A stretch of 64,000 nucleotides of DNA from a virus. The notes beneath the pieces are model-generated. The model was not told where the DNA came from. It saw only the letters and a program-made list of their open reading frames with translations, and made no database searches. A program made the position numbers and the translations under genes. The stretch lies in the IMG/VR virus record IMGVR_UViG_3300044641_005643; one strand, given 5' to 3'. Shown one piece after another: positions 1 through 64,000 of this stretch. The stretch's first letter is position 1. Each line of letters opens with the position of its first letter.

Positions 1-3000
1 TGGAAAACTGGCAATGTGTTGGTTCTGAGTCCTGTCAGTGACTATATAACAATTTTTAATCCAACTGCAATCATTGATGAAGTGACCGGTTCTGCATACG
101 GTAGTAGAATTTTAGATATAAACTCTAAAGCCATTAGAAAAAACAGTTTTACTGTAACAAGAGATAATGGACTGTTCACTATCAAGTGTATTGCAAATGA
201 AACTATCGGGTTTGCCACGTTTGATTTTGTTCAATACGAACATTTACTTTTATTAGATAATACAACAGTTTTCAATGATGTAATTTATGTGCCTGAAACT
301 GGAAGCAGACAATCAAGATTGAAACTTGTTGGTAATAAAACAGGATTATGGAATGGCAGTTTGGAATTACCAGGATACATTTACAGCAACGAAACAGTTC
401 CAGAATGGCTTGCTGGTAGTGATTATCTCAAAGGCTCCTTGGTAACTTATAAATCTTCACTATACACTGCATTACAAAACATTATAGCTGCTGACACTTT
501 CCAGATTGCTTTTTGGCAAAAAATAGATAATAACGAATTACGCTCGGGATTGATAAACAATTTTGCCACTAACGCTTCTCAATCATTGAGATACTATGAC
601 ATTAATGATCAACCAATCAACGAAGAAATACAGTTGTTCAGTAATGGGTTAATAGGTTTCAGACCTAGAGAATATTTTACAAATCTAGGAATTGATGTCA
701 CAACTCAATCAAAATTTTATCAAGGATTGATAAAACAAGGAGGAACTCTTAACGCAATTGATGCATTGCAAGGTTCGCAATTCAACAATTTAGGCACGCA
801 ACCGCTGACTGTTTATGAAAATTGGGCCATTCGAGTAGGTGAATACGGTGCTTTAGAAACAAATAATTTTCTTGAATTTGTTTTACCTGAGCAATTTTTT
901 AGAAATAATCCGTCAGTGTTCCAACTTGCTGATGTCGAATCAAACACTGACGTAGATATCAAAACATTTACGCAGCAGTCTGTATATAGGCAAAGTAGCG
1001 CATTTCAAGTTGATTTCCTAAAAACAGTTGATTACAACGAACCAGTAGAATTTAAACCATTACCAGTGGCCGGCTTTGTGCATTTAGATGATATCAATAA
1101 CACAGTGTTTGATATCAAAAATTATGAAAGCTATAGAGAAATTGCTGACGAAATTGGAATAGGTTATACTATTTGGACTGCTCGAGATCTAAACGATGAA
1201 TGGAATGTTTATAGAGCCACCCCAGTTCCGGGTTTGATTTTTATTCTACGTTACCATCTAAATTCACAAGCAGAATTCGTGTCCAACGCACCTCATGGTC
1301 TCCAGGAAAATGATATAGTTGCTTTGAAAAATTTTGATCCAAGATACAATGGTATGTATCTTGTTCAATCTATCGTGGATGACACAAGATTTTTAGCCAC
1401 AATATACAGCAACTTACAAGAATTAATTGAAAGTCAAGCCGTTCTTGGACAGGGTTTGCTATACAAATTAACAAGCAGTAAGTTTGCTACTCCATTGGAT
1501 ATTGTAAATTATGCACCTAATTCGGGGCTGATAAGAAATGACAAGGTGTGGGTTGAGACTGTTGATGACAAAGACAACTGGGGCGTATATACCAAAACTG
1601 ATCCTTGGATCTATAGAGAAACCATACAGCTAGATCAATATTCAGGTTTTGATCATTTTGGTAGTGCAATTGCACTGGATTTTACATCAACATATCTTTA
1701 TGCATCAGCTCCCGATTCCGGATCAGGAAGAATAGGTGTTTATTCAAGAGATTCTCAGGATGAATTCACTTTAAGAGCTTCATTGTTTAGTAATCACATT
1801 TATTCTCAGATCAATCAGTTCGGCAAGGTTATTGCTACTGGAACAAAGAATAACGTCAATAGCTACTTAATAGCAAGTGATCCAACAGCAACCAACGACA
1901 CTGGTGTGGTGTATGTTTTTAAAGACAGACTTCTACAGTGTATATTAACTGCTGAGTCAGGTGTCTCGGGCGACATGTTTGGTCACTCGTTGGCCTTAAG
2001 CGATGATGCTCAGTATCTATATGTTGGGGCACCAGGTGCCAATAAAGTTTATTGTTATGCAATCGATTACGAAAGACAGTCGGCAGTGCAAGAACTAATA
2101 CAACCAGACAATGGTTCTATTACAACCTTGAGTTTGACTGCCTTGATTGATAATGCAACTGATATTGTTGTATCAGCATCTATTATTGCATCGCAGTTTC
2201 TTCCCTACATTGATTACAATCTTGATAACACCATTGATGCTTCTATTGAAACATTTACATTTTCAGGAACCGCAGCATCGGGAACTGCAAATTACATCAA
2301 TGTTTCAGCCGTCGGGGGCAGTGGCACTGGTGCAACCTTTGATGTAGCTAGATCAGGCGGCGTATATACAGTAACTCTGAACAATCCTGGAAAAGGATAT
2401 GTGTTAAATGATACCATTAGTATTCTTGGTGAAGAGCTAGGAGGGTCTTCTCTAACCAACGGTCTAACTATTAACATCACAAAAGTTTTGGTTGGAATAA
2501 CTGGTTATACTCAAACTGGAGACAGACCCGCTGCAGGTACGGAAGTATTTTATTACAATCGAACAGCAACAGGCGGCACTGGTACCGGAGCCAAGTTCAG
2601 AGTTTCATATAGTTCTGCATCAGATTTTTACACATTGGTTTTAGAAAATGCAGGTGTTGATTATTTGATAGGAGATGTTCTAACGATTGATGGTGCCACT
2701 GTTGGTGGTTCAACTGGAGTTCATGATATTACAATTACTGTTACTGCCGTGGGCGCAGTAACAAACTTGGTATTTGCAACTCCACCAGCCAGTTTCCTTA
2801 TCATGTCAGTGGTCAAACCAGCAGAAAAATATATATTTTTAGAAACTTTACCCAAGTCTTCTGAAGTTGCTATTAACAGTGAATTTGGATCAGCTGTAGT
2901 TTGTAATTCAGATGGATCGGTAATTGCAGTTGGTGCCAGTAACACAACTGTCAATGATGTGAGCGGTGCAGGAGCTGTATTTGTTTATCATAGAACAAAA

Positions 3001-6000
3001 ACTGAATTAACTACCACTGGCTCTTCGAACACATTTACACTACCTGATCCTTTTGGTAATTTTTACAGAGTTTATTTAGATGGAGTTTTGCAGTACGATT
3101 TTACAAACAAACCAGAAGATGTTGATGCAGATTACACAATAACTAGTATTAACCCATCTCAGATTACTTTTGGAGATCCTGGGTCATCGTTCCTAGAACC
3201 ACGTAGAAAATTATTTGTTGAGACTAATCAATTTGTTTATGATCAGGTTTTATATTCAAACCTGACAGGCTCATTAAGTGACAATTTTGGTAGCGGCTTG
3301 GCCATGTGTAACACCGGGTGCAACATTTATGTTGTAAGTTCAAAATATATTGAGGCCGACTATTCTCAAGGTCTGGTCACTAGATTTTTAAACGTGGGCA
3401 GAATCTATGGAACTATTTTGTCCACTAAAACCAATCCAACAGTGACTCCTGGCCAAAGTATTATTATCAATGACAGATTGGTACAATTTTCAGGATCACA
3501 GTTGGCCAATGTGATTGCAGATATCAACCAAGCACTTATTCCGGGAGTAACTGCTAGCAATGAAAGCGGCAAACTGAGAATCACCAGTGATGTTACTGTT
3601 GTAGGAAACCGGTTAAACATATTGAATGGAAATCAAGGTACTCCATTAGCGGATCTTGGTCTAGAAGATTATAAATTTGTACAAGTGTTTAAACATCCTG
3701 AAACTGAACAACAATTTTACGGAACCAGCATAGCAGTTGATCAAACTACCGGAGTTTTAGTTATTGGAAGTGAGGGCGGAGATTACGATTTGCCTATAAG
3801 TTTTGATCAAGGGTTGCCACTAATTACAACCTTTGATGGAAATACAACAAACTTTATAGATGTTCTTAAAGACAGCGGAGCTGTGTATGTTTATGATTTA
3901 TTAGAAAACCCCAATGAAGACATAGACAATCCTTCACTGTTTGCCTACAGTCAAAAACTTTTTGGACCAGCACTAGATGACAATGTGAATTTTGGATCAA
4001 GTGTGGTTTTGAACGGAAAATATTTAATAGCCGGATTATCAAATGCAAGAACTATATCAAGTGAAAATGGAGAACTTTTTTATTTTTACAATGAAGATGA
4101 ACAAAGCGGATGGGCATTGTCAAGATTCCGTCAGCCAAGAGTTGATACCAACGCTGTTTTAAGTAGTTTTTTATATAATGTAAATTCACAACAAATTTTA
4201 GATTTTTTTGATTATCTTGACCCAGCCAAAGGAAAACTATTAGGCGTAGTAGATCAAGAATTGGATTATAAAGAAGAATATGACCCCGCTAGTTACAATC
4301 AATCCAATAGAGCTGACACAATCAATAACACAAATTTTTATTGGTCAGACAAACAGGTTGGTAGAATCTGGTGGGATTTGAGCACAATTAGTTTTATTGA
4401 TTATGAACAAGACGAAATAACTTACAGAATTAAAAACTGGGGCTCTTTATTTCCAGGCAGTCTAGTAACAATTTACGAATGGGTAGAAAGCGACTTTTTA
4501 CCAAGTCAGTACGTAGATTCGGTAGGTGATGGTGCTCCTAGATATGCCGACAATTCTGCATATTCATCCGTAACTTTTATTGATCCAGTTACTGGAATTG
4601 TAACTCAAAAGTATTACTACTGGGTGGTAGGAAAATCCAACGTTGATGTTCTTAAAACCAAACGAACTATCAGTGCGCTGGCTCTGCAGAATTATATTAC
4701 CAGTCCCAAAGATCAAAATATACCTTATCTAGCTTTGTTGGCTCCTAATGCAGTTGGTCTATACAACATAGCAGATAAACTGTCAGGCGAGAACGTTGCT
4801 ATTCATTTTGATCTTGCTCAAATAAGAAATACAAATCTGATACACACTGAATGGCAGCTTGTACAGCAAGGAGCTTCGCTTACCAATTTGCCAACAAAAA
4901 TAATTAACAAACTGAAAGACAGTTTGGCCGGGTTCGATGAACTAGGAGCTATTGTTCCAGATCCGGCGTTGAGTGCTCAAGACAAGCCGGGTGTCAGTCT
5001 TCTACCTAGACAATCTATGGTGATTCATAGAAACACAGCTATTACCACCTATGTAGAAACACTCAATTTGATTCTAGTAGAATATCCTATTTTATTATTA
5101 AGCACTCCTACTTCATTAAAGTCAGAAGAACCATTGCCAGTGTCGGGATTTGATGAACAAACAGACAGTGTTGATAATTTAAATTATATTGATACAACCA
5201 CACTGCCAAACGGTTACAAAATATTAGTTCCTTCCGATACCAATCATAACGGAAAATGGACAATTTATTCGTACAATAGTAGCACTGGGGAATTTGATCT
5301 AGTAAGAATACAAAGCTACAAATCAACACTATACTGGACTGCGATTGACTGGTACGATACTGTTTATCAACCTGGTACCACAATAGCCTATACTCTGAAT
5401 ACCTATGCAGAGATACAGACCATAAGTCCAATTGCAGGCGATTATATCAAAATCCTAGATGGCGGTAACGGAACTTGGATATTGTATGAGACACAGGATG
5501 ACCTGAGCTTGACTTTGATTGGTGCACAAAATGGCACACTGCAATTAAACAGAGCATTATACGATCCATCACTTGGCGGAGGATATGATACTACAACCTA
5601 TGATGTATCAGGCTATGATCCTATTCCTACTGAAGAATTTAGATTGATTTATGACGGAATGGTTCAGCAGATTCTAGTGGGCGAACTCAGTGTTGAATTC
5701 AACAATTTGTTCTTTGCGATGTTGAACTACATTTTTACCGAACAAAAGAGTCCGGACTGGGTAATAAAAACAAGTTTGATTGACGTCGTGCATGGTCTCA
5801 GATCTTTAGAGCAATTTCCAAACTTCACAAGAGACAACCAGGTCTTTTATCAGGACTATATCAACGAGGTAAAACCGTATAGGACTCAAATAAAAGAATA
5901 TATTCCTAATTATTTTAAACAAGATAATTTAGATAGCAATATAACTGATTTTGATTTGCCAAGTGCATATGATGCTCGCTTTGATCAATTTAGAAGCCCC

Positions 6001-9000
6001 AGTTTAAGCAATCAATTTGACAATGAATTATTTGAGCAACCAATCTATTCTGACTGGGCGAATAATTACAAATTTCAAATTGTAGATTTTATACTTGGAA
6101 ATATTGGTTTAGATTATACATTCCCTCCAAATGTTGAAATAACAGGAGGTGGTGGATCAGGTGCATCTGCAATCACTACATTGTATTCAAACGGATCCAT
6201 ATCGGGTATCACAATCATCAATCCTGGCGTGGGATATACATCTGCGCCTGACGTTACAATCAACGGCGATGGTATAGGTGGTCAAGCATACCCAATTTTA
6301 AAAAATCAATATTATTCATTACAAAGCAATCTAAGTTATAATTTGGTCAAAAATATTTTCACTACTTTAAAATTTGATCGAACCACTTATAGCAGTAACC
6401 TGGTAACTTGGACACCAAATACTTCTTATTCAAACATTGTAATATCCAGCGACACTTTAGATCCAGGTAATTTGTATATTGTATCTGGAAATTTAGTTGT
6501 ACATGAAAATGAAGTTTATCTTCCACAGAATGCGAATGCAACACCTTGGTTGGTCAATACTTTGTATCCTATAAACAGTTACATTTCATTTAGTAACAAT
6601 GTTTATTCAACATCGGGTAATGTTTATGCAAGTAGTTTTGCTGCTGCTTCTGTGCAGGCAAACGTAGAAATTGTTTCACAATTTGACTTTACAAGATTTT
6701 CTATAATTCAAGATGGAAATGTTTTACTCAACGCACTAGATAGAATAACAGCATACTATGAACCTACCGTAGGAATGCCTGGAAAAAATATTGACGAGTT
6801 ACTGTCGGGTACAAAATACCCAGCATCAAAGGTAACTGGACCTACGTTTAGAGCCAATGCTTTTGAAGTTTCAAGCAATATCATTTCTTTCAATTATGAT
6901 GGTTTAACAATTAACAGTGGAAACACAGCACAGTTTGACTTTTTAGATTTGGGATTTGATCTAGACAAAACCATTAGAATCGAAGCCAACGTGCCTTTTG
7001 ACTTTCAAAATAATGGATATTTTAGAATCGTGGGAGTTGATAGAGACACCATGATTTTGACAGGTCAGCCTGTTGAAACAACATTTAAAGTCACATTGAG
7101 TCAAAACATCAATGCCAATGTTGGTGATTATCTTACTCAGGCCAATTCTAGTGGAAATGCCTGGGTGTTACAGTCTGTAACCAATTCTAATCAAGTTGAT
7201 ATCATTTATATTACACCTGGATTTTTAACTGTCCCGAGTGGTAATGTATATGCCAATTTACAAATTAGTAAAAATGGCACACCTTTAAACGCAAATGTAA
7301 CGTCAATATCTAATTTTGATAAAACATTTACACCAATTGCATCAGGCGGAAATGTTGAAGTAACTATTGCTTATCTTGATCAAGATTACATTGTTGATTC
7401 AAATATTTACAGCACATATTTAGATACTGAATTAGGCACAAGACCTGAAGATATCAATATAGTAGGCGGAGCCTATTTTGACATTTATTCAAGTCATGCT
7501 CCGGAAGAACTTGTGCCTGGTAGAATGTATGACGCCATGGAAATGCGTGTGTTTAGTAACACCGCTGGTAACACAGCCACTTACGGTTACAGAGTGTTCC
7601 AACCAATGAGCGCCAATATAACCTACAGTAGAATTAGTGCCAATGCTACCACAACACTCGCTAACAATTTGCTTTATTCAGATCAAGAAATTTTAGTAAG
7701 TGATGTGACCAAGTTACCTGAGCCAAATGTACCAGCTGGTATTCCTGGAGTGGTCTATATCAATGGTGAAAAAATTCATTATTACCAAAGATACGATGCA
7801 GTCAAACTGAGCACAGCAGTGGCCTGGACAGCAAACACTGAAATTGCAAAAAATTCTTTGATTGTGATCAACAGTAATACATTCTTAACACTAGGCAACG
7901 TATATGCAAATTCCGAGTCATATATTAATTCGGCAAATATACAATTAGTGAAAAATAATTCTTTGCGTCAATTGCGCAGAGGTGTAGATGGTACGGGCAT
8001 AAGTGCAAATGTTAGTAGTGGAAATTTAGTATCCGACGGTAGTGTGATTCAAACTATACCAGAGGCTCAAATAACCAGCGCACAAACTATCACCGGTAAT
8101 CTACATGTTACATCAAACGCCACTTACAGAGCAGTGCTATCCAGCCCAATCACAGCAAGCATAGGTGATTACATTACACAATTTGCAGGGAATACAGGTA
8201 ATGCAAGAATAGTAGGCGGAAATGTAAAAGGTTACAGATTGTTCTTGTCAGGAAATACCAGTCAGCTTGAAGGGAATGTTATTACTCAATTTGGTACTTC
8301 GAATGCCACAGCTACAATTGTTGAAACTGTCAATAACTCTACCACATTGATTGTGACACCAAACAGTAAATTTATCAGTTCTTTGGTTGATCCTGTGTAT
8401 GTCAATAACAAACTGACAGGTCTTTACATCACCAGAGTTGAAAAAGATATAATAGAAGATGATGTTGTAGCTGTTGATATTGTATCCCCAGGACTATGGG
8501 CAACTGCAAATCTTGATTATACTTTGACTTTGAGTAATGCAATTAGTGCTGCCAAGAACGATATAATAACACAGTTCTATGATCCAGATACTTACTTAGT
8601 GGAGTTTTCAAGTCCTATTACATCTAATGTGGGCGACTACATAACTCAGTTCCAAGGCAACACATACAGATTACAATTGGATAAGACTATAAGCGCAAAC
8701 ATCGGGGACTACATTACTCAATTTGTAGGTAATGTATCAAATCTTCAAGTTATTGATGCAAATGTAGTTTCAAATTTTGTTAATGTACAATTTGTCACGG
8801 GCAATGTAGAAAATCTAAAATTTGCTACCAATATTGGCACCAGAGTCAATATTGCTAACTTGTACAGTTTTGGTGGATCGGTGTTTAGCAATACTTCGGC
8901 CAACATTGTCAGTATCTATCAAAAAGCATTCTCACCGAGCGTTGTAAATGTTGGCAATGCCAACTTGCGTGTTACAAGAAGCAGTTTTAACAGTAATGTT

Positions 9001-9606
9001 ATACCAGTTCAATTTATTACCGGCGATGTTAATGTAATTAAGACAGCTGCCAATGTAGGCACTAGGGCCAATATTGCCAATTTGCAAGCAAATACATTTA
9101 ATTTTACAACAGCAAACATAGTTAGTATAACAATTGCACCTAATGTTAAAACTGTGTTTAGAGTGCGTTCAAATGTAAGCTCTTCATTTACAGTTCCAGT
9201 AGAATTCATATCTGGTAACACTGCCACGTTGAAACTGGCCACTAACGTTGCTACCAGAATTATTGATTCAACTAACTTTATAACCAATGCAAATGTTGTG
9301 TCTATAAGTTTAGACGGATTCGGAAGCAATACCTTTGGTAATGCTGACACAAGAATCAGCGTAGCAAGTAAAACTATTGGTGTAGTTAGCACAACTGCTA
9401 ACATTTTAACTTTACAACCAATTGGAGATATTACATTTACCAATAATTTACAGTATCCGAGAAGTTTGTTGTCGAATGGAAATGTAGTTCTAAACGGTGT
9501 AACAACTTTAAAGAGTAACATTTGGGAACAGTTTGGTGTCACATTACAAAATAGCACCACTGCGGCAGCACAATTTATTAGAGAGCAGACTAGTTATATA
9601 CCATGA
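1..9606 (+). CDS. Giant virion structural protein (baseplate/tail-associated), 5'-truncated by the window edge
   Basis: Frame is open from base 1 (tgg aaa act ggc aat gtg...), so the true start is upstream. Contains seven FG-GAP-like repeats, Gly-rich GxGY repeats typical of myovirus structural proteins, and C-terminal GDYITQ repeats. Lies at the head of the tail gene block. Confidence 0.75.
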   Translation, partial: WKTGNVLVLSPVSDYITIFNPTAIIDEVTGSAYGSRILDINSKAIRKNSFTVTRDNGLFTIKCIANETIGFATFDFVQYEHLLLLDNTTVFNDVIYVPETGSRQSRLKLVGNKTGLWNGSLELPGYIYSNETVPEWLAGSDYLKGSLVTYKSSLYTALQNIIAADTFQIAFWQKIDNNELRSGLINNFATNASQSLRYYDINDQPINEEIQLFSNGLIGFRPREYFTNLGIDVTTQSKFYQGLIKQGGTLNAIDALQGSQFNNLGTQPLTVYENWAIRVGEYGALETNNFLEFVLPEQFFRNNPSVFQLADVESNTDVDIKTFTQQSVYRQSSAFQVDFLKTVDYNEPVEFKPLPVAGFVHLDDINNTVFDIKNYESYREIADEIGIGYTIWTARDLNDEWNVYRATPVPGLIFILRYHLNSQAEFVSNAPHGLQENDIVALKNFDPRYNGMYLVQSIVDDTRFLATIYSNLQELIESQAVLGQGLLYKLTSSKFATPLDIVNYAPNSGLIRNDKVWVETVDDKDNWGVYTKTDPWIYRETIQLDQYSGFDHFGSAIALDFTSTYLYASAPDSGSGRIGVYSRDSQDEFTLRASLFSNHIYSQINQFGKVIATGTKNNVNSYLIASDPTATNDTGVVYVFKDRLLQCILTAESGVSGDMFGHSLALSDDAQYLYVGAPGANKVYCYAIDYERQSAVQELIQPDNGSITTLSLTALIDNATDIVVSASIIASQFLPYIDYNLDNTIDASIETFTFSGTAASGTANYINVSAVGGSGTGATFDVARSGGVYTVTLNNPGKGYVLNDTISILGEELGGSSLTNGLTINITKVLVGITGYTQTGDRPAAGTEVFYYNRTATGGTGTGAKFRVSYSSASDFYTLVLENAGVDYLIGDVLTIDGATVGGSTGVHDITITVTAVGAVTNLVFATPPASFLIMSVVKPAEKYIFLETLPKSSEVAINSEFGSAVVCNSDGSVIAVGASNTTVNDVSGAGAVFVYHRTKTELTTTGSSNTFTLPDPFGNFYRVYLDGVLQYDFTNKPEDVDADYTITSINPSQITFGDPGSSFLEPRRKLFVETNQFVYDQVLYSNLTGSLSDNFGSGLAMCNTGCNIYVVSSKYIEADYSQGLVTRFLNVGRIYGTILSTKTNPTVTPGQSIIINDRLVQFSGSQLANVIADINQALIPGVTASNESGKLRITSDVTVVGNRLNILNGNQGTPLADLGLEDYKFVQVFKHPETEQQFYGTSIAVDQTTGVLVIGSEGGDYDLPISFDQGLPLITTFDGNTTNFIDVLKDSGAVYVYDLLENPNEDIDNPSLFAYSQKLFGPALDDNVNFGSSVVLNGKYLIAGLSNARTISSENGELFYFYNEDEQSGWALSRFRQPRVDTNAVLSSFLYNVNSQQILDFFDYLDPAKGKLLGVVDQELDYKEEYDPASYNQSNRADTINNTNFYWSDKQVGRIWWDLSTISFIDYEQDEITYRIKNWGSLFPGSLVTIYEWVESDFLPSQYVDSVGDGAPRYADNSAYSSVTFIDPVTGIVTQKYYYWVVGKSNVDVLKTKRTISALALQNYITSPKDQNIPYLALLAPNAVGLYNIADKLSGENVAIHFDLAQIRNTNLIHTEWQLVQQGASLTNLPTKIINKLKDSLAGFDELGAIVPDPALSAQDKPGVSLLPRQSMVIHRNTAITTYVETLNLILVEYPILLLSTPTSLKSEEPLPVSGFDEQTDSVDNLNYIDTTTLPNGYKILVPSDTNHNGKWTIYSYNSSTGEFDLVRIQSYKSTLYWTAIDWYDTVYQPGTTIAYTLNTYAEIQTISPIAGDYIKILDGGNGTWILYETQDDLSLTLIGAQNGTLQLNRALYDPSLGGGYDTTTYDVSGYDPIPTEEFRLIYDGMVQQILVGELSVEFNNLFFAMLNYIFTEQKSPDWVIKTSLIDVVHGLRSLEQFPNFTRDNQVFYQDYINEVKPYRTQIKEYIPNYFKQDNLDSNITDFDLPSAYDARFDQFRSPSLSNQFDNELFEQPIYSDWANNYKFQIVDFILGNIGLDYTFPPNVEITGGGGSGASAITTLYSNGSISGITIINPGVGYTSAPDVTINGDGIGGQAYPILKNQYYSLQSNLSYNLVKNIFTTLKFDRTTYSSNLVTWTPNTSYSNIVISSDTLDPGNLYIVSGNLVVHENEVYLPQNANATPWLVNTLYPINSYISFSNNVYSTSGNVYASSFAAASVQANVEIVSQFDFTRFSIIQDGNVLLNALDRITAYYEPTVGMPGKNIDELLSGTKYPASKVTGPTFRANAFEVSSNIISFNYDGLTINSGNTAQFDFLDLGFDLDKTIRIEANVPFDFQNNGYFRIVGVDRDTMILTGQPVETTFKVTLSQNINANVGDYLTQANSSGNAWVLQSVTNSNQVDIIYITPGFLTVPSGNVYANLQISKNGTPLNANVTSISNFDKTFTPIASGGNVEVTIAYLDQDYIVDSNIYSTYLDTELGTRPEDINIVGGAYFDIYSSHAPEELVPGRMYDAMEMRVFSNTAGNTATYGYRVFQPMSANITYSRISANATTTLANNLLYSDQEILVSDVTKLPEPNVPAGIPGVVYINGEKIHYYQRYDAVKLSTAVAWTANTEIAKNSLIVINSNTFLTLGNVYANSESYINSANIQLVKNNSLRQLRRGVDGTGISANVSSGNLVSDGSVIQTIPEAQITSAQTITGNLHVTSNATYRAVLSSPITASIGDYITQFAGNTGNARIVGGNVKGYRLFLSGNTSQLEGNVITQFGTSNATATIVETVNNSTTLIVTPNSKFISSLVDPVYVNNKLTGLYITRVEKDIIEDDVVAVDIVSPGLWATANLDYTLTLSNAISAAKNDIITQFYDPDTYLVEFSSPITSNVGDYITQFQGNTYRLQLDKTISANIGDYITQFVGNVSNLQVIDANVVSNFVNVQFVTGNVENLKFATNIGTRVNIANLYSFGGSVFSNTSANIVSIYQKAFSPSVVNVGNANLRVTRSSFNSNVIPVQFITGDVNVIKTAANVGTRANIANLQANTFNFTTANIVSITIAPNVKTVFRVRSNVSSSFTVPVEFISGNTATLKLATNVATRIIDSTNFITNANVVSISLDGFGSNTFGNADTRISVASKTIGVVSTTANILTLQPIGDITFTNNLQYPRSLLSNGNVVLNGVTTLKSNIWEQFGVTLQNSTTAAAQFIREQTSYIP

Positions 9607-42979: not shown

Positions 42980-43375
42980 TTAGATGCCGTTCTTTTCGCG
43001 CCATGCATCAGCCTTGACTTTGGCGTCAGCCATCCAAGTGTCAAAGAACTTGGCAGCATCCATGCCTGCTTTGTACTCTTTGGGTACTCGCTTGGCTTTG
43101 ACTGCAACCACTTGAGTAGTCTTTGCAGCCTTAACCTTAACAGTAGCAGGCTTTGCAGCCTTGGCGGCACGAGCTGGCTTTGTAGCAGCGATGCCTTGAC
43201 CATTCAGCCACTCTACTGCTTCATCTTTGCCCATTGCAAACGGCAGTTGAAGCATGTTGATGTCTGTGCAACCAAACCGCTCAAGTGCTTTGGCACGATT
43301 GGCGTCGTTCGCAAACTTATAAACAACTGCGCCATTCTCCGTGCAAGTACCTGCAAAAGTAAAAGTCTTGCTCAT
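42980..43375 (-). CDS. Small basic protein with Ala/Lys/Pro-rich (histone-H1-like) segment
   Basis: AATKPARAAKAAKPATVKVKAAK; AGGAGG SD; own promoter and downstream hairpin. Confidence 0.7.
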   Translation of the reverse strand: MSKTFTFAGTCTENGAVVYKFANDANRAKALERFGCTDINMLQLPFAMGKDEAVEWLNGQGIAATKPARAAKAAKPATVKVKAAKTTQVVAVKAKRVPKEYKAGMDAAKFFDTWMADAKVKADAWREKNGI

Positions 43376-43407
43376 TTAAAGCCTCCTTGTTAATTGACAA
43401 CATCAAT

Positions 43408-43436
43408 AGTATAGCAAAATGGGCTATTATGGTCTA
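43408..43436 (-). promoter_or_regulatory. Sigma70-type early promoter
   Basis: TAGACC-17 nt-TATACT with TGn extension. Confidence 0.7.
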
Positions 43437-43452
43437 CCATTTTACAGTGTTG

Positions 43453-43668
43453 TTATTTTGCAACACAACGGTATTCTTGCTGATATTGCAACTGTGTGTC
43501 TATTACACGATTTACAACATCAATATATTGTTGCGAATATGTTAAGCTGGGTACAAAAAACGGTGTTGCATAAATGCTACGAATTGCATTTTCGCAACTT
43601 TTTTGTGTGTCATAAGTGCCCATGTAAGCGGGCGGGTTAATTGCTAGTGCTAGTAAAATAAATTTCAT
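43453..43668 (-). CDS. Hypothetical small protein with hydrophobic N-terminus, probably leaderless
   Basis: ATG at 43668 lies 6 nt downstream of the -10 box; MKFILLALAI start. Confidence 0.55.
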   Translation of the reverse strand: MKFILLALAINPPAYMGTYDTQKSCENAIRSIYATPFFVPSLTYSQQYIDVVNRVIDTQLQYQQEYRCVAK

Positions 43669-43674
43669 ACTCAA

Positions 43675-43703
43675 ACTATAACAAATTGCCCAATTATGGT
43701 CTA
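43675..43703 (-). promoter_or_regulatory. Sigma70-type early promoter
   Basis: TAGACC-17 nt-TATAGT with TGn extension. Confidence 0.65.
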
Positions 43704-44036
43704 GCGTTTTTTGTGTTGCTTTTTAGCAACAGTTTTGGGTGTTGCTAAAGGTGCAACTTTTGTTGCATTTTTCAAAATATGAAACATGTCTGTTGCTTTT
43801 TTAAAATTAAAATTTGGATGCTTGTACATATAATCAATTTTGCGTTCTAAAACTTGCAAAACTTCTAACAAATCCATTTTTGTTGTAAAATCGCTATCCA
43901 TTAATATTTTGTTAATATCGTGCTTGTCTAACATATACTCTACCCATTTTGTTGTAGCGGGTATTTTGTAATATTGTACTATTGCTTTTTTGTTATTGCT
44001 GGTTGCATATTTGTTAATGTAAGTACGTGCTAACAT
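43701..44036 (-). CDS. Hypothetical basic protein (early gene)
   Basis: ATG at 44036 with AGGAGG SD; Lys-rich. Confidence 0.65.
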   Translation of the reverse strand: MLARTYINKYATSNNKKAIVQYYKIPATTKWVEYMLDKHDINKILMDSDFTTKMDLLEVLQVLERKIDYMYKHPNFNFKKATDMFHILKNATKVAPLATPKTVAKKQHKKR

Positions 44037-44062
44037 ACAGCCTCCTTTTAACAAGACTGTAT

Positions 44063-44091
44063 ATTATATGCAAAACGTGAATTATGTGCAA
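44063..44091 (-). promoter_or_regulatory. Sigma70-type early promoter
   Basis: TTGCAC-17 nt-TATAAT. Confidence 0.65.
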
Positions 44092-44097
44092 CGGTTG

Positions 44098-44463
44098 TTA
44101 AAGTTGCAAGTTGTCCAAGTACTGTTGCAAATTGTCCGCATGTAATTTGAGCATTACAGTTTCTTGTTCGCCTAACAGTACCACAAGATCAAGTTTCTGT
44201 ATATAGTACGGACAAGTCATCAGGCGACCAAGTTGTATGAGCGTTCTATTTCGTAAAGGTTCGGACAGCACACATTCATACACAGGGATCCGAGTAAATT
44301 TACGAATAAACTGTATTCCGGATTTGCTTAACCTGAGTGTGTTTGGATCAGTATGATTCCACCACCAAACTTTTATATACTGCGAATATTCTGCAACATC
44401 CCGACCTGCGGCCCTAAGGATGCCGGCGGTGTAATCGTGCTGATTATGGGTAGATTTGGTCAC
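44098..44463 (-). CDS. Hypothetical protein
   Basis: 121-aa ORF. Confidence 0.6.
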   Translation of the reverse strand: MTKSTHNQHDYTAGILRAAGRDVAEYSQYIKVWWWNHTDPNTLRLSKSGIQFIRKFTRIPVYECVLSEPLRNRTLIQLGRLMTCPYYIQKLDLVVLLGEQETVMLKLHADNLQQYLDNLQL

Positions 44464-44731
44464 CTTGTTTCATTAGGACCACGGTGAATTTGTCGGTCTT
44501 GAACAGAGTGTTGAGTTTTTTTGCTAGATTGATAGCATGCCCGCTATTACTAAAACTTACCTTTTTGTATTTGGGACCAGGATAAGCTACCAACATGTTA
44601 GAGCTTTTAAGATTGATTGGTTTGTTGTCGTAGAATACTGCCCAAATTCCTTCGCTGCTGAGAACTTGATCGCTTTTGTAGTTAGATTTATTTACATGTT
44701 CTAACAATACTGTGGGTTTAGGTCTAGACAT
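44444..44731 (-). CDS. Conserved phage hypothetical protein
   Basis: 95-aa ORF (MSRPKP...YPGPKYKK..FSN.GHA.NLA); preceded by CATAAATA. Confidence 0.65.
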   Translation of the reverse strand: MSRPKPTVLLEHVNKSNYKSDQVLSSEGIWAVFYDNKPINLKSSNMLVAYPGPKYKKVSFSNSGHAINLAKKLNTLFKTDKFTVVLMKQGDQIYP

Positions 44732-49585: not shown

Positions 49586-49980
49586 GAGATCTCGGTACGC
49601 CCATTCCCTAAATCATTTCTATCTACCCGTCTTGGTCTTGCATCATATGGTTGATTGGCTTCCCATTGTTCAAAGTTTTCGTTTAGGATATTGCGACAAA
49701 TACTTTGAAACCAACGATCCACAATCTGATCATCGGTGTCGTCTTTGCGTTGCATGTAACCGGCCTTGACCAGTCTAGCAACAAATACGTCATTCCAATC
49801 TAGTTCAAATGACCCATTACCAATATCGTCAGGATCCAGTTCCACACTTAAAATACTGATATATGGCTCGCCTGCTTCGGTAGCAATCTCTTTGGCTGTT
49901 TTTGCTTTGGTTTTGACTTTTGGTGCTTCTGATTTTGCTTCAGGTTTTGCTTCTGGTCGTTTCTTTAACCAATCGAACAT
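49582..49980 (-). CDS. Hypothetical protein
   Basis: ATG at 49980 coupled to the queE stop; FELDWN motif. Confidence 0.6.
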   Translation of the reverse strand: MFDWLKKRPEAKPEAKSEAPKVKTKAKTAKEIATEAGEPYISILSVELDPDDIGNGSFELDWNDVFVARLVKAGYMQRKDDTDDQIVDRWFQSICRNILNENFEQWEANQPYDARPRRVDRNDLGNGRTEIS

Positions 49981-50828
49981 TATGTCCCCCATTCGTTCTT
50001 GAACAACGGTACTTGTAATCTATCACTATATCTTAATCCATGTTTCATTGCTAGTAGTGCAACTGCTCTATTGTTTAGCGAATATATACTTTCTACCCCA
50101 CCAACCGGCATCAGATATACGGATCCTCTAAATCCAGCATCTCTATATACTTTGACTGCTTTTAATGCATCAGCAACATCTTCTTCGGTAGCAACAACAA
50201 ATTTCAAGTATGTGTGGCCAACAGTTTGGTATCGATAAACAACGTCAGGACGTATGGCTTCTGACCATGTCTCACCACTAGCTGGCAGCTTGGCACTCAC
50301 ACTAAATGTAACTTCACGGCTTAAATTCAAGCCCGGCATTTGCCATTCCATTAGATATTCAACAAATTCTTCAGATAATTCTTGTGTGCCGTTAGTTTCA
50401 AAAGTAATTTCTTTTAGCTTGCGCATACGTGGATGATTCAACAAATCTGGATAAGCACGTTGCCAACCTAGCAATGGTTCTCCTCCGGTGATAACAAGAT
50501 GCTCATCTCGCCATTTGCCATGAGGCAGTATCTCCATGATACGATCCACAACTGCATTACTTGTTAGTACAGGACTAAGATCTTTAAATCTAGGATCCCA
50601 TGATGCATAACTGTCACATCCAGTTGATACTAAAGGCAGTTGTTCATACTTGGTATATTTGTCAGGATCTACACTGTCAGCTTCTTTACTTAGCTGGCCT
50701 CTAGGCATGCCAAAACCAGCACATTTAAAGTTACAGCCAAATGTACGCAGGAACACACTAGGTACCCCCATATATCTGCCTTCGCCTTGTATTGAATAAA
50801 ACAGTTCTGCTACTTTGATTTTACTCAT
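49980..50828 (-). CDS. queE: 7-carboxy-7-deazaguanine synthase (radical SAM)
   Basis: ELFYSIQGEG...G.PSVFLRT.GCNFKC...CDS, ITGGEP, ETNG, S.K, R.Q; adjacent to queD. Confidence 0.9.
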   Translation of the reverse strand: MSKIKVAELFYSIQGEGRYMGVPSVFLRTFGCNFKCAGFGMPRGQLSKEADSVDPDKYTKYEQLPLVSTGCDSYASWDPRFKDLSPVLTSNAVVDRIMEILPHGKWRDEHLVITGGEPLLGWQRAYPDLLNHPRMRKLKEITFETNGTQELSEEFVEYLMEWQMPGLNLSREVTFSVSAKLPASGETWSEAIRPDVVYRYQTVGHTYLKFVVATEEDVADALKAVKVYRDAGFRGSVYLMPVGGVESIYSLNNRAVALLAMKHGLRYSDRLQVPLFKNEWGT

Positions 50829-51343
50829 ACAAACAAGTCCTCATTCCATTCACGATGACCTTCACGAAATGCCATATTGCTTTGAGTTTCGCGTACTTCT
50901 ACTCGATAGCACCACAAACGTTCTGCTTCGCTCGGACCCCACATGTCAGGAATATACACTCCATTAACATATTTGTACAACATGTCTGCCAGTCCTTCAC
51001 AACCCAGTCTTGGTAATACAGTGAGCTTGGCCAACTTTTTTTCTTGTAACAGTTTAAAAGTTTCAAGTTCGGGATCGTCTTGTGCTACCAGCAAGGTATG
51101 GTCAAATTGGTCTTCTAGTATAGATTTAAGTTCTTTGAGACCACCATAGTCAGCGGCCCAGTTACGTACATCTAAATGATCTGTGCCAAAGAAAAACTTC
51201 ATACTAAATGAATAGCCATGAATTAGATTGCAGTGACTGTCGGCTCGCCATTGTCTATACGCACACGGAAATGCGTCATGGTATTCTTTCGTAGAAGTAT
51301 ATTTGTAAGTGCGTGGTTGTTGTATTTCGTTAAGATAAAGCAT
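50825..51343 (-). CDS. queD: 6-carboxy-5,6,7,8-tetrahydropterin synthase
   Basis: C.LIHGYS, DYG.LK, FDH, E.LA, V.ET motifs. Confidence 0.88.
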   Translation of the reverse strand: MLYLNEIQQPRTYKYTSTKEYHDAFPCAYRQWRADSHCNLIHGYSFSMKFFFGTDHLDVRNWAADYGGLKELKSILEDQFDHTLLVAQDDPELETFKLLQEKKLAKLTVLPRLGCEGLADMLYKYVNGVYIPDMWGPSEAERLWCYRVEVRETQSNMAFREGHREWNEDLFV

Positions 51344-53187: not shown

Positions 53188-53883
53188 TTATCTTGGTGCA
53201 AACTCTTGTTGCAGTTTGATGTTATCAAAAAATTCTTTCTTGACACTAGGGTCATCTTTGAACACACCTTTTAGAACTGTGGTCTGGGTGAGACTACTGT
53301 GTGCCATAATGCCGCGATTCTCGCAGCAACCGTGGGTGGCCTGAATGTATACAGCCACGTCTTTACTTCCAGTTGCAAATTCGATTTCTCTTGCAATGTC
53401 CATACAAAGCTCTTCCTGCAGAGTGCCTCTCCGGGCACACCACTGGGCGATTCTTGTATACTTTGAGAGACCAATGAGTTTGGGACCAGCAATAATCCCA
53501 ATATAAGCCACGCCAGTAACAGGCTGGTGATGATGGCTGCACACGCTTTTGAGCTCGCTTCGTACGACCAACATACCTTCGTATTTTCCATCAGTGTCAT
53601 TTGGAAATGCAGTTGCATTTGGAGTCGGTTCATATCTACCTGCCATCAATTCATTGTAATACATTTTGGCAAGACGCCGGGCTGTGCCTTGGCTGTTGGG
53701 ATCTGTAACTCTGTCAATAAGCAAAGTATCCAGCACTTGTTCAAATGCTTCAGTTGCTTCATCGATTAGCAAATCCTTGTCTGCATCATCAACATAACTG
53801 CTGATATTGTCTCCGGCCCAATATCTTTTGCCGTTTGCTTGCATTTGTTGTCTAATGCGATCACTTACTCGTGTGTATTTCAT
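53188..53883 (-). CDS. folE: GTP cyclohydrolase I
   Basis: T.RR.AKM, S.CSHH, GLSK..R, R..LQE, H.C...RG. Confidence 0.93.
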   Translation of the reverse strand: MKYTRVSDRIRQQMQANGKRYWAGDNISSYVDDADKDLLIDEATEAFEQVLDTLLIDRVTDPNSQGTARRLAKMYYNELMAGRYEPTPNATAFPNDTDGKYEGMLVVRSELKSVCSHHHQPVTGVAYIGIIAGPKLIGLSKYTRIAQWCARRGTLQEELCMDIAREIEFATGSKDVAVYIQATHGCCENRGIMAHSSLTQTTVLKGVFKDDPSVKKEFFDNIKLQQEFAPR

Positions 53884-53903
53884 AATCACCTAAATAAAAA
53901 TTA

Positions 53904-62306: not shown

Positions 62307-63845
62307 TCACTCCTCCAAATGAGATTGAATTAGATTTGATGCCTCTTGATCTGACATTTCATTTTCGTCATCTTCAACTACTTCAAACAGTGCATTGAAC
62401 ATTGTGTTACTGTTTTTGGTTTTTTTACCTTTAAATCCTCTTGTGCCAACAATGTCCATCCAATATCTTTCATAATGTTCAATGATAGATTCGGAAGTTG
62501 CTCTATCTGGTGCTGCAAATATAGCCTCAACAATGTCTTCAAATTTTGAATGATCACCATTGCGATACCATAACATGGCCGGTCTTTGTCCAGAATCAAA
62601 AGTTCTATTGGCTCGTTGCACACTTTCAATATGCATCCAAACATTATGACTCATCATTAATGCGTAACTAAAACTATCCCAACTGGTGCGACCTTCCTTT
62701 CCGTTTTTGTTTAGATCACCAGGCTTGTATATACAAACGTCTTTTATTGATAAATGCTTGCTAACGGGCGATTCATCAAACACATCAAAAATTCCATCCT
62801 GCAATACTGCGTCTCGAAATGTTCTGGTGTCTGTAGCGTATTTCTTGTCGTCGGCACTGGGTGACATTCTGTAACACCATTTTGCGTCATGAGGCAAGTC
62901 AATTTGATGATACATCTGTCCGTTGGCTGTGGCCAGAAACGGACTGGCACAATCAAAACTGATAGTAAAAGCAGGATTGACATACTTGCGTACTGCTCTC
63001 TGTACTACTGTTAATAATACTGCCCATTCTAATTTACTTGTTCCCAAAAAGTGCATCCAATCATGCACGCCTTCTTGAAGAAGGTTATCGTATTTTAACG
63101 CAATCAAACGTTTCAGCACAAGATGTATATCACACATGTTCTGTCCGCCCATAGCCCATCCGTCAAAATGTGTGTCTGGGTACTTGGCAGGATCACAAAA
63201 CTCTTTCATTTCTTCGTACCACTCATTGGCACTGGTATGATTGTCGCCTTGTAAAACATTTAAAAACTTTGCACCACCATTTTTCTTACCTCGACGATGC
63301 TGCATGAAATAGTTGTTGTTGAACTTTGTGGCATCAACGGCTTCTTCGAGTGTTGATATACCACAAGCGGCACTTGCCTTCTTGTCATGTATTACCCAGG
63401 TGGGAATATCAAGAATCATGCCATAATCAGCAATCCCATCGAGCCATTTAAGAACTGCTGAACGTTTTTTTTCAGCCTTGGCACAACCTGAGTTGGCACG
63501 CCAGTCACCTTCCCACAAGCCCTTGGCAATTTGGAATCCACCCGAATCACCTAGCATGAAAGTGCCGGGCTCGCGTTTGCGAACCATATCTTCACTGGCG
63601 TCTTCTTTGTTGAGATCTAGGTTGGCGTGACCACCTGAGTACAGACTCCATCTGTAAGGAAACAGGGCCTGTTGGCTGTTGAGCCAATTGAACTGTTCCA
63701 TGTCTTGTAACGCCGGTGGCATACGAGCAGGATCAACATAGTCATTACTAACACGTTGCTTTCCTATAAAAGTTGCGTAAAAACCAGAAATAGCAGGCAA
63801 GAACACTGCATAATCTGATTGTTTTACTGTTAAATTATCCTGCAT
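62307..63845 (-). CDS. dpdA: TGT-fold DNA guanine transglycosylase (DpdA-like)
   Basis: DSGGFQ, M.LDIP, NVLQG, GWAMGG, HFLG, SFD.ASP and HN motifs of the TGT fold; no CxCxxC zinc site; phage context with folE/queD/queE. Confidence 0.8.
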   Translation of the reverse strand: MQDNLTVKQSDYAVFLPAISGFYATFIGKQRVSNDYVDPARMPPALQDMEQFNWLNSQQALFPYRWSLYSGGHANLDLNKEDASEDMVRKREPGTFMLGDSGGFQIAKGLWEGDWRANSGCAKAEKKRSAVLKWLDGIADYGMILDIPTWVIHDKKASAACGISTLEEAVDATKFNNNYFMQHRRGKKNGGAKFLNVLQGDNHTSANEWYEEMKEFCDPAKYPDTHFDGWAMGGQNMCDIHLVLKRLIALKYDNLLQEGVHDWMHFLGTSKLEWAVLLTVVQRAVRKYVNPAFTISFDCASPFLATANGQMYHQIDLPHDAKWCYRMSPSADDKKYATDTRTFRDAVLQDGIFDVFDESPVSKHLSIKDVCIYKPGDLNKNGKEGRTSWDSFSYALMMSHNVWMHIESVQRANRTFDSGQRPAMLWYRNGDHSKFEDIVEAIFAAPDRATSESIIEHYERYWMDIVGTRGFKGKKTKNSNTMFNALFEVVEDDENEMSDQEASNLIQSHLEE

Positions 63846-64000
63846 AAAATTTAATTGAGTTGATGAGTTTGTAATCTTCGACAAAATATTTTTCTAGATT
63901 ATAAAGGTATTTAGAATTTTGTTCAATGGCTTTTGTAAAAATAGTTTTAAACTTTTTTCTTTCCGGATCGTGATCTGAAATATGTTGATAATCATAATTG
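63835..64000 (-). CDS. 3' end of a CDS running off the window (possibly sulfotransferase-like)
   Basis: Translated by hand: ...NYDYQHISDHDPERKKFK...LEKYFVEDYKLINSIKFYAG*; stop overlaps the dpdA start region. The functional guess rests only on a Y..D..L-like tail. Confidence 0.4.
   Translation of the reverse strand, partial: NYDYQHISDHDPERKKFKTIFTKAIEQNSKYLYNLEKYFVEDYKLINSIKFYAG

Follow-up and report, generated by a model that had tools for sequence, protein, structure and literature searches.

A cassette of small early genes in the 64,000-nt stretch of phage DNA analyzed here (the window) is purged of the dinucleotides GA and TC, and this purge affects both strands, operates at the dinucleotide level, is maintained by selection, and is limited to one gene family plus a gene that is inserted after it. 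The depletion is a robust finding and an unusual one. We hypothesize that the phage marks guanine at GA in its own DNA and that the cassette is spared this mark, a reading that we consider plausible while stopping short of calling it probable. The stretch belongs to an uncultured giant phage and is present in lake-water metagenome runs of 20 studies, with no RNA run among the public runs listed as containing it, and its near-complete relatives measure 330 to 353 kb; no near-identical cultured phage was found.

Between positions 43441 and 44160 the window holds 9 GA and 22 TC, against the 78 expected from local base composition (35.8 and 42.5, respectively). These are the same counts as in an initial annotation of this DNA, which had put the expectation at about 75. 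Sliding odds ratios, a check proposed in that annotation, were computed for 720-nt windows advanced by 120 nt at a time over the full 64 kb (mean of 0.90, standard deviation of 0.12) and reach their minimum, 0.396, in this segment. GA/TC density is back to normal from 44187 onward. The scarcity includes the intergenic pieces of the island (9 GA/TC against 19 expected) and the segment at 44098 to 44186, where the end of P0004 lies within the island (5 against 10.4). All GA/TC contexts are scarce (TCA, GAA, GAT, CGA, and AGA), not a single site, and the strongest triplet depletion relative to the flanks is that of TCA/TGA, GAA/TTC, and ATC/GAT. The tetramer GATC, initially described as missing from about 42350 to about 44186, is by our recount absent between 42346 and 44187 in a window that contains 280 sites at a mean spacing of 229 nt. 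A gap of this length would be expected by chance about 0.09 times among 280 intervals (hand estimate), and its right half is without sites because GA and TC have been lost there. The placement of the island among sigma70-type promoters is likewise upheld, with 14 promoter-like sites between 42500 and 45500 against 6.9 +/- 2.8 in shuffles. The features discussed here are listed in Table 1.

Table 1. Coordinates of the GA/TC-poor island, the genes and signals in and around it, and the 7-deazaguanine-related genes of the window
Feature	Position	Strand	Basis or remark
P0003, 131 aa, Ala/Lys/Pro-rich middle	42980..43375	-	Ratio 1.10, P(GA+TC) 0.82: not purged at fixed amino acids
GA/TC-poor island, both strands depleted	43396..44186 (approximate edges)		Plus-strand GA only 9 between 43396 and 44187
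P0003 promoter module, TAGACC N17 TATACT, near downstream island edge	43408..43436	-	Promoter scan
P0002, accessory gene, 71 aa, signal-peptide-like N terminus, also purged	43453..43668	-	GA/TC counts
P0002 promoter module, TAGACC N17 TATAGT, extended -10	43675..43703	-	Promoter scan; conserved in alignment
P0001, core purged gene, 111-aa ORFan, helical bundle with basic C-terminal tail	43701..44036	-	IMG/VR orthologues, AF2 model
P0001 Shine-Dalgarno (SD) sequence, GGAGG within AAGGAGG	44041-44045	-	Sequence
P0001 promoter, sigma70-type, -35 TTGCAC/TGCACA, -10 TATAAT	44063..44091	-	Promoter scan and sequence
P0004, 121 aa, last ~90 nt within island	44098..44463	-	Ratio 0.97, normal overall
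QueE-like and QueD-like genes (7-deazaguanine precursor pathway)	49980..51343	-	PHROG 1.7e-52, 2.4e-36
FolE-like GTP cyclohydrolase I	53188..53889	-	PHROG 4.8e-44
Candidate DNA transglycosylase, DpdA-like, 525 aa, putative TGT fold	62307..63884	-	Consensus motifs and ESM-Atlas lead

The core purged gene, P0001, carries 11 GA on its coding strand against 16.3 expected and 2 TC against 8.6. Ten of the 11 GA belong to Asp or Glu codons, which together with the two TC matches the initial description of this gene exactly. The accessory gene P0002 has 5 GA against 8.9 and 4 TC against 9.6, and a single avoidable coding-strand GA is left in each of the two genes. P0001 also contains no GGC or GCC, with 2.8 to 3.9 expected, and its GG/CC is reduced. 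When synonymous codons were redrawn from window usage, leaving the amino acids fixed, the observed values were 13 against 25.4 for P0001 (z = -4.1) and 10 against 19.6 for P0002 (z = -3.5), making these the two lowest of the 71 window genes; the depletion thus persists under an amino-acid-preserving null, where the initial annotation had allowed that it might vanish. With codon usage taken from AT-rich genes only, the probability of a GA+TC count at or below that observed is <1/2000 for P0001 and P0002 alike, and the other AT-rich genes of the window have ratios of 0.82 to 0.97 under the amino-acid-preserving null.

The initial annotation had proposed that the first genes transcribed by host RNA polymerase were purged, which is too broad: the purge concerns one family and an inserted gene, and P0003 and P0004 are normal, even though P0001, P0002, and P0003 have in common a sigma70-type module, CATAAT-N12-TATAnT. 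The genes from 32 to 64 kb in the window lie on the minus strand, an AAA ATPase and a DUF2201/VWA protein are encoded beyond the four small genes, and there is no tRNA or Rfam match within the 64-kb window. We note that a 95-aa ORFan at 44444 to 44731 (minus strand) is 88 to 100% identical across relatives, against only 40 to 80% for its neighbors; it is the best-conserved small protein of the block, yet its ratio is 1.11 and it is not purged. The stop codon of P0001 (TAG, 43701 to 43703) doubles as the opening triplet of the -35-like box TAGACC of P0002, an overlap kept in most orthologues. Two terminator-like hairpins on the plus strand (43714 to 43731 and 43741 to 43757), in which GTTGC...GCAAC is followed by a T-run, are antisense to the 3' end of P0001 and could halt antisense transcription.

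The IMG/VR collection holds 50 loci orthologous to P0001 at 75 to 97% amino acid identity, and in nearly all of them the lowest 720-nt window lies over the P0001 orthologue. The averaged profile shows a dip of 300 to 800 nt, beginning ~120 nt ahead of the start codon. The purge holds down to ~70% amino acid identity and is retained in more than 35 distinct orthologues from two phage lineages; in the lineage of loci L035 to L038 the homologue is purged and has no flanking genes in common with the window. With amino acids held fixed, the orthologue is the most depleted gene in two long relatives (of 156 and of 196 genes) and the third most depleted of 428 in a complete genome of 353 kb. The complete relative G006, with 352.8 kb, carries its homologue at 248.6 kb. 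Homologues of P0001 span ratios of 0.42 to 0.98, some lineages being nonpurged (0.82 to 0.98), and depletion of the gene correlates with that of its flanks too weakly to be of use (rho = 0.34, P = 0.003, uncorrected for relatedness).

Codon choice in the 35 distinct P0001 orthologues reflects the same avoidance. Phenylalanine is encoded by TTT 149 times and by TTC 12 times, serine by AGY 101 times and by TCN 20 times, and arginine by CGY/CGG 136 times against 6 AGA and 8 CGA, despite a gene GC content of ~31%; ATC accounts for only 6 of 209 codons and GGA does not occur. Other C-ending codons are used freely (TAC 41%, AAC 35%; TAC, AAC, and GAC make up 35 to 41% of their respective pairs). Codon junctions of the form G|A number 31 against 233 expected (0.13), and of the possible synonymous transitions, those that would create GA or TC occur in orthologues in 29% of cases, against 57% for neutral ones (Fisher P = 0.008).

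P0002 is present in only 17 of the 50 related loci and is unrelated to P0001, yet it is purged, which indicates that the property belongs to the cassette or its position and not to one protein. The site between the P0004 and P0001 homologues (44037 to 44097 in the window) is a gain/loss hotspot for small early genes, with insertions of 0.8 to 3 kb in L014, L023, L029, L032, L046, and L050. Elsewhere, other patches poor in raw GA/TC, both in the window and in giant fiber-like genes of the relatives G3 and G1, disappeared under the amino-acid-preserving null. A 3,166-aa giant gene of G006 (L099 to L116; 234905 to 244405) is GA/TC-poor under this null (0.76, z about -8.5), unlike the giant gene of the window (16 to 9606), which has a ratio of 1.03.

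The P0001 protein finds nothing in Pfam or PHROGs, its relatives (135 close ones and 46 distant ones) are without exception unnamed proteins, and no homologue was found in cultured phages. A first AF2 model from close orthologues only was unusable (pLDDT of 49.5); with a deeper alignment, the protein is modeled as a small helical bundle with a pLDDT of 85.8. Searching with this model returned no Foldseek match in the PDB at E <= 0.001, a sole return in BFVD, an uncharacterized phage protein, and Z scores of at most 7.5 against generic helical bundles in a VIA-wide comparison. The protein does not look like a nuclease and, being strongly conserved, may be a host-takeover factor that binds other proteins. 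The basic tail at its end resembles the middle segment of P0003, where residues ~64 to 97 form a histone-H1-like Ala/Lys/Pro-rich stretch, and both may bind nucleic acid. The possibility that P0001 is an inhibitor of the anti-END type that is spared the mark was also considered and rejected: gp52 of phage PA5oct is without similarity to P0001 and is nonpurged, its ratio of 1.06 ranking 86th of 121.

Genes for the 7-deazaguanine precursors (FolE, QueD, and QueE) are present in the window and have homologues in its relatives. They lie upstream, in the region from 50 to 64 kb, together with sugar-tailoring genes and the 525-aa candidate transglycosylase. The candidate itself has no Pfam match (TGT included) and no PDB sequence or profile match, and the Pfam TGT model misses this family even in complete relatives. 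Its assignment draws on one ESM-Atlas lead (0.93, with a TGT annotation on 17% of cluster members) and on a family consensus that contains GDSGGFQ, AMGG, FLGTS, and FDCASP, which we take to be TGT motifs. The 7,600 matches to the family carry no source-given function, and no Pfam domain occurs among the 120 matches listed. The complete relative G006 has no match to PF06508 (QueC, which is required for preQ0), and a CDG-derived base in place of preQ0 would be consistent with this.

The initial annotation had suggested comparing phages with and without the modification genes, expecting the purge in the former only, and this expectation was borne out in part. A TGT-like gene (61 to 80% identity) and QueE occur in all five near-complete genomes that have a purged copy. 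In the relative G9 (141 kb, 85% complete), no FolE, QueC, QueD, QueE, TGT, or 525-aa candidate was detected, and the P0001 homologue is still the most depleted of 189 genes (P < 1/3,000), with a weaker purge (0.66 against 0.45 to 0.52).

The P0001 cassette, comprising the promoter, the gene, and whichever gene directly follows, is held as free of GA and TC as the protein permits, with GG/CC and GGC also low in the window lineage. As the most likely reason, we hypothesize that the phage modifies its own DNA with a 7-deazaguanine transglycosylase that recognizes the GA/TC step, so that the cassette would stand nearly unmodified amid a genome otherwise marked at GA. A modified G within it may be costly either for the expression of this very strongly promoted early gene or through exposure to a factor acting at marked sites. 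We infer that GA is the motif of the enzyme, that the DNA carries any modification, and that modified G in the cassette comes at a cost. Depletion on both strands implies a reader of GA at the level of DNA. Relatives with a purged gene retain the -35 boxes TTGACA and TTGACC, which contain GA, and promoter recognition is therefore not what is protected. These boxes count against reading the purge as avoidance of the phage's own mark, as do G9, the normal neighbors with the same promoter, the early region of PA5oct, and the GA-containing palindromes, whose avoidance across the genome is not relaxed. The mechanism offered in the initial annotation, a modification-free island that reveals the DpdA target motif, is accordingly the best available and partly supported: it agrees with a purge that affects both strands and is under selection and with GA as a published motif, and it is unsupported for early genes generally and for the promoters, as well as by G9 and PA5oct.

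Alternatively, GA/TC may be read by a factor unconnected to deazaguanine, such as a host or phage nuclease, or a defense factor that acts at very short sites containing GA, in which case the purge would serve survival or escape regardless of modification. We consider this unlikely. The purge is specific to a gene and not common to a gene class, and it tracks the gene family into G9 (G009; L091 to L098), in which neither que nor TGT genes were detected and which shows strong classical restriction-site avoidance, with CCGG at 0.00 and GGCC at 0.17 of expectation. On the other hand, the DpdA enzymes are the only factors known to us to recognize a bare GA in double-stranded DNA, and G9 is an incomplete genome in which the purge is weaker. 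An ordinary restriction site as the avoided word was rejected, every GA/TC context being depleted and GA-containing palindromes being no different genome-wide; these palindromes are avoided no less than others across the genome, and relaxed avoidance as a sign of GA protection was not significant.

Selection on the mRNA, against Rho-loading pyrimidine-C steps, runs resembling SD or anti-SD sequences, or RNase sites, seems improbable to us. It would account for the coding-strand values of the window lineage (TC 0.23, CT 0.35, and CC 0.66), for the most avoided junction triplets (AGG, TCT, GGA, and CCT), and for the setting of a gene whose promoter and SD are near consensus. Avoidable coding-strand GA is equally purged, however, and the dip sets in ~100 nt ahead of the likely start site. 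The sister subfamily, at ~45% identity, has TC at 0.29 and GA at 0.73 overall, the latter at an estimated ~0.4 with Asp and Glu codons set aside, whereas its CC, GG, and CT are not low (CC 1.35 and CT 1.16). The GA/TC duplex step is thus what the two subfamilies have in common on both strands, which points to DNA and not mRNA. A Rho-evading transcript, in which both TC and CC would be depleted and the depletion would be confined to the coding strand, was rejected on the same GA and sister-subfamily CC values, and avoidance of SD-like runs misfits because the triplets most depleted relative to the flanks are the three pairs named above for the island.

An overlapping cis element, such as an origin, an operator array, or a packaging site, whose own rules happen to exclude GA and TC merits equally little credence. 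Codon identity at conserved residues is 0.76 to 0.84 in the purged gene, against 0.45 to 0.65 in its neighbors and 0.575 at saturation, and 15 copies of GTTGC/GCAAC were counted in the window island, where a first-order Markov model predicts 3.3 and a second-order model 5.4. A restricted codon repertoire alone lifts codon identity, however, and in the sister subfamily the purged islands show no enrichment of GTTGC/GCAAC (7 against 18), which makes a conserved cis element unlikely; we therefore rejected these pentamers as a conserved binding array and take them to be lineage specific. A conserved mRNA structure was likewise not supported, as no RNA covariation was found (RNAalifold covariation term of +0.16, compensatory pairs 2 of 54). 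Recent import, or a compositional relic of a GA-poor donor, fits the AT-rich island (33% GC against 47 to 49% alongside) and its location at a hotspot of gene gain and loss, and is very improbable given the retention of the purge across the orthologues of two lineages, the underrepresentation of GA/TC-creating synonymous changes, and the ratios of the other AT-rich genes, so that this alternative from the initial annotation is rejected.

If avoidance of the phage's own guanine mark is the correct reading and that mark reads GA, the modification motifs of uncultured phages (here GA, perhaps with GGC or GG) could be inferred from sequence alone, and hypermodified DNA would have a local cost that phages work around; the cost of the mark at particular genes would then have shaped codon choice and protein composition. 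In its general form, with one early gene cassette of giant freshwater phages spared their own 7-deazaguanine mark and the motif and the cost following from this, we put the reading forward more tentatively than for the cassette of the window. If another factor reads GA, an unfamiliar one with dinucleotide specificity would be implied.

Among known systems, the PA5oct-like jumbo phages (Wroclawvirus) resemble the window lineage in several respects. The AAA ATPase adjoining the island has its best cultured match there, at 50% identity, and PA5oct, by this match the nearest cultured relative though a distant one, carries QueE and PTPS genes and a restriction resistance that suggests modified G in GA and/or GG (PMC12191111). 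They differ in that P0001 has no homologue in cultured phages and that the first 45 kb of PA5oct, the early region that includes the anti-END gene gp52, contains no comparably purged gene. The closest parallels for the motif are two characterized DpdA enzymes. That of phage iggy modifies G strictly in GA, at >=97% of sites (PMC10484667), and that of CAjan modifies G in GA and also in GGC (PMC7544227), which agrees with the CAjan motif given in the initial annotation. The likeness lies in the same duplex step, GA, in the loss of GGC from P0001 as well, and in the presence here of FolE, QueD, QueE, and a TGT-like candidate. The differences are that modification is putative here, that the candidate is missed by Pfam TGT, and that QueC was not found in the complete relative G006. 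The term-matched passages of these two papers make no mention of motif-free zones (PMC10484667, PMC7544227).

Restriction-site avoidance offers a further comparison, since the window shows the same kind of local scarcity of a short word that neither composition nor protein sequence explains. The first-step-transfer region of phage T5, for example, which enters the cell first, is not known to contain EcoRI sites. When phages avoid short motifs, the usual interpretation is that they evade restriction enzymes; here the avoided word is a bare dinucleotide and not a site of 4 to 8 bp, and it is purged from both strands of one gene cassette only and kept out by selection across relatives.
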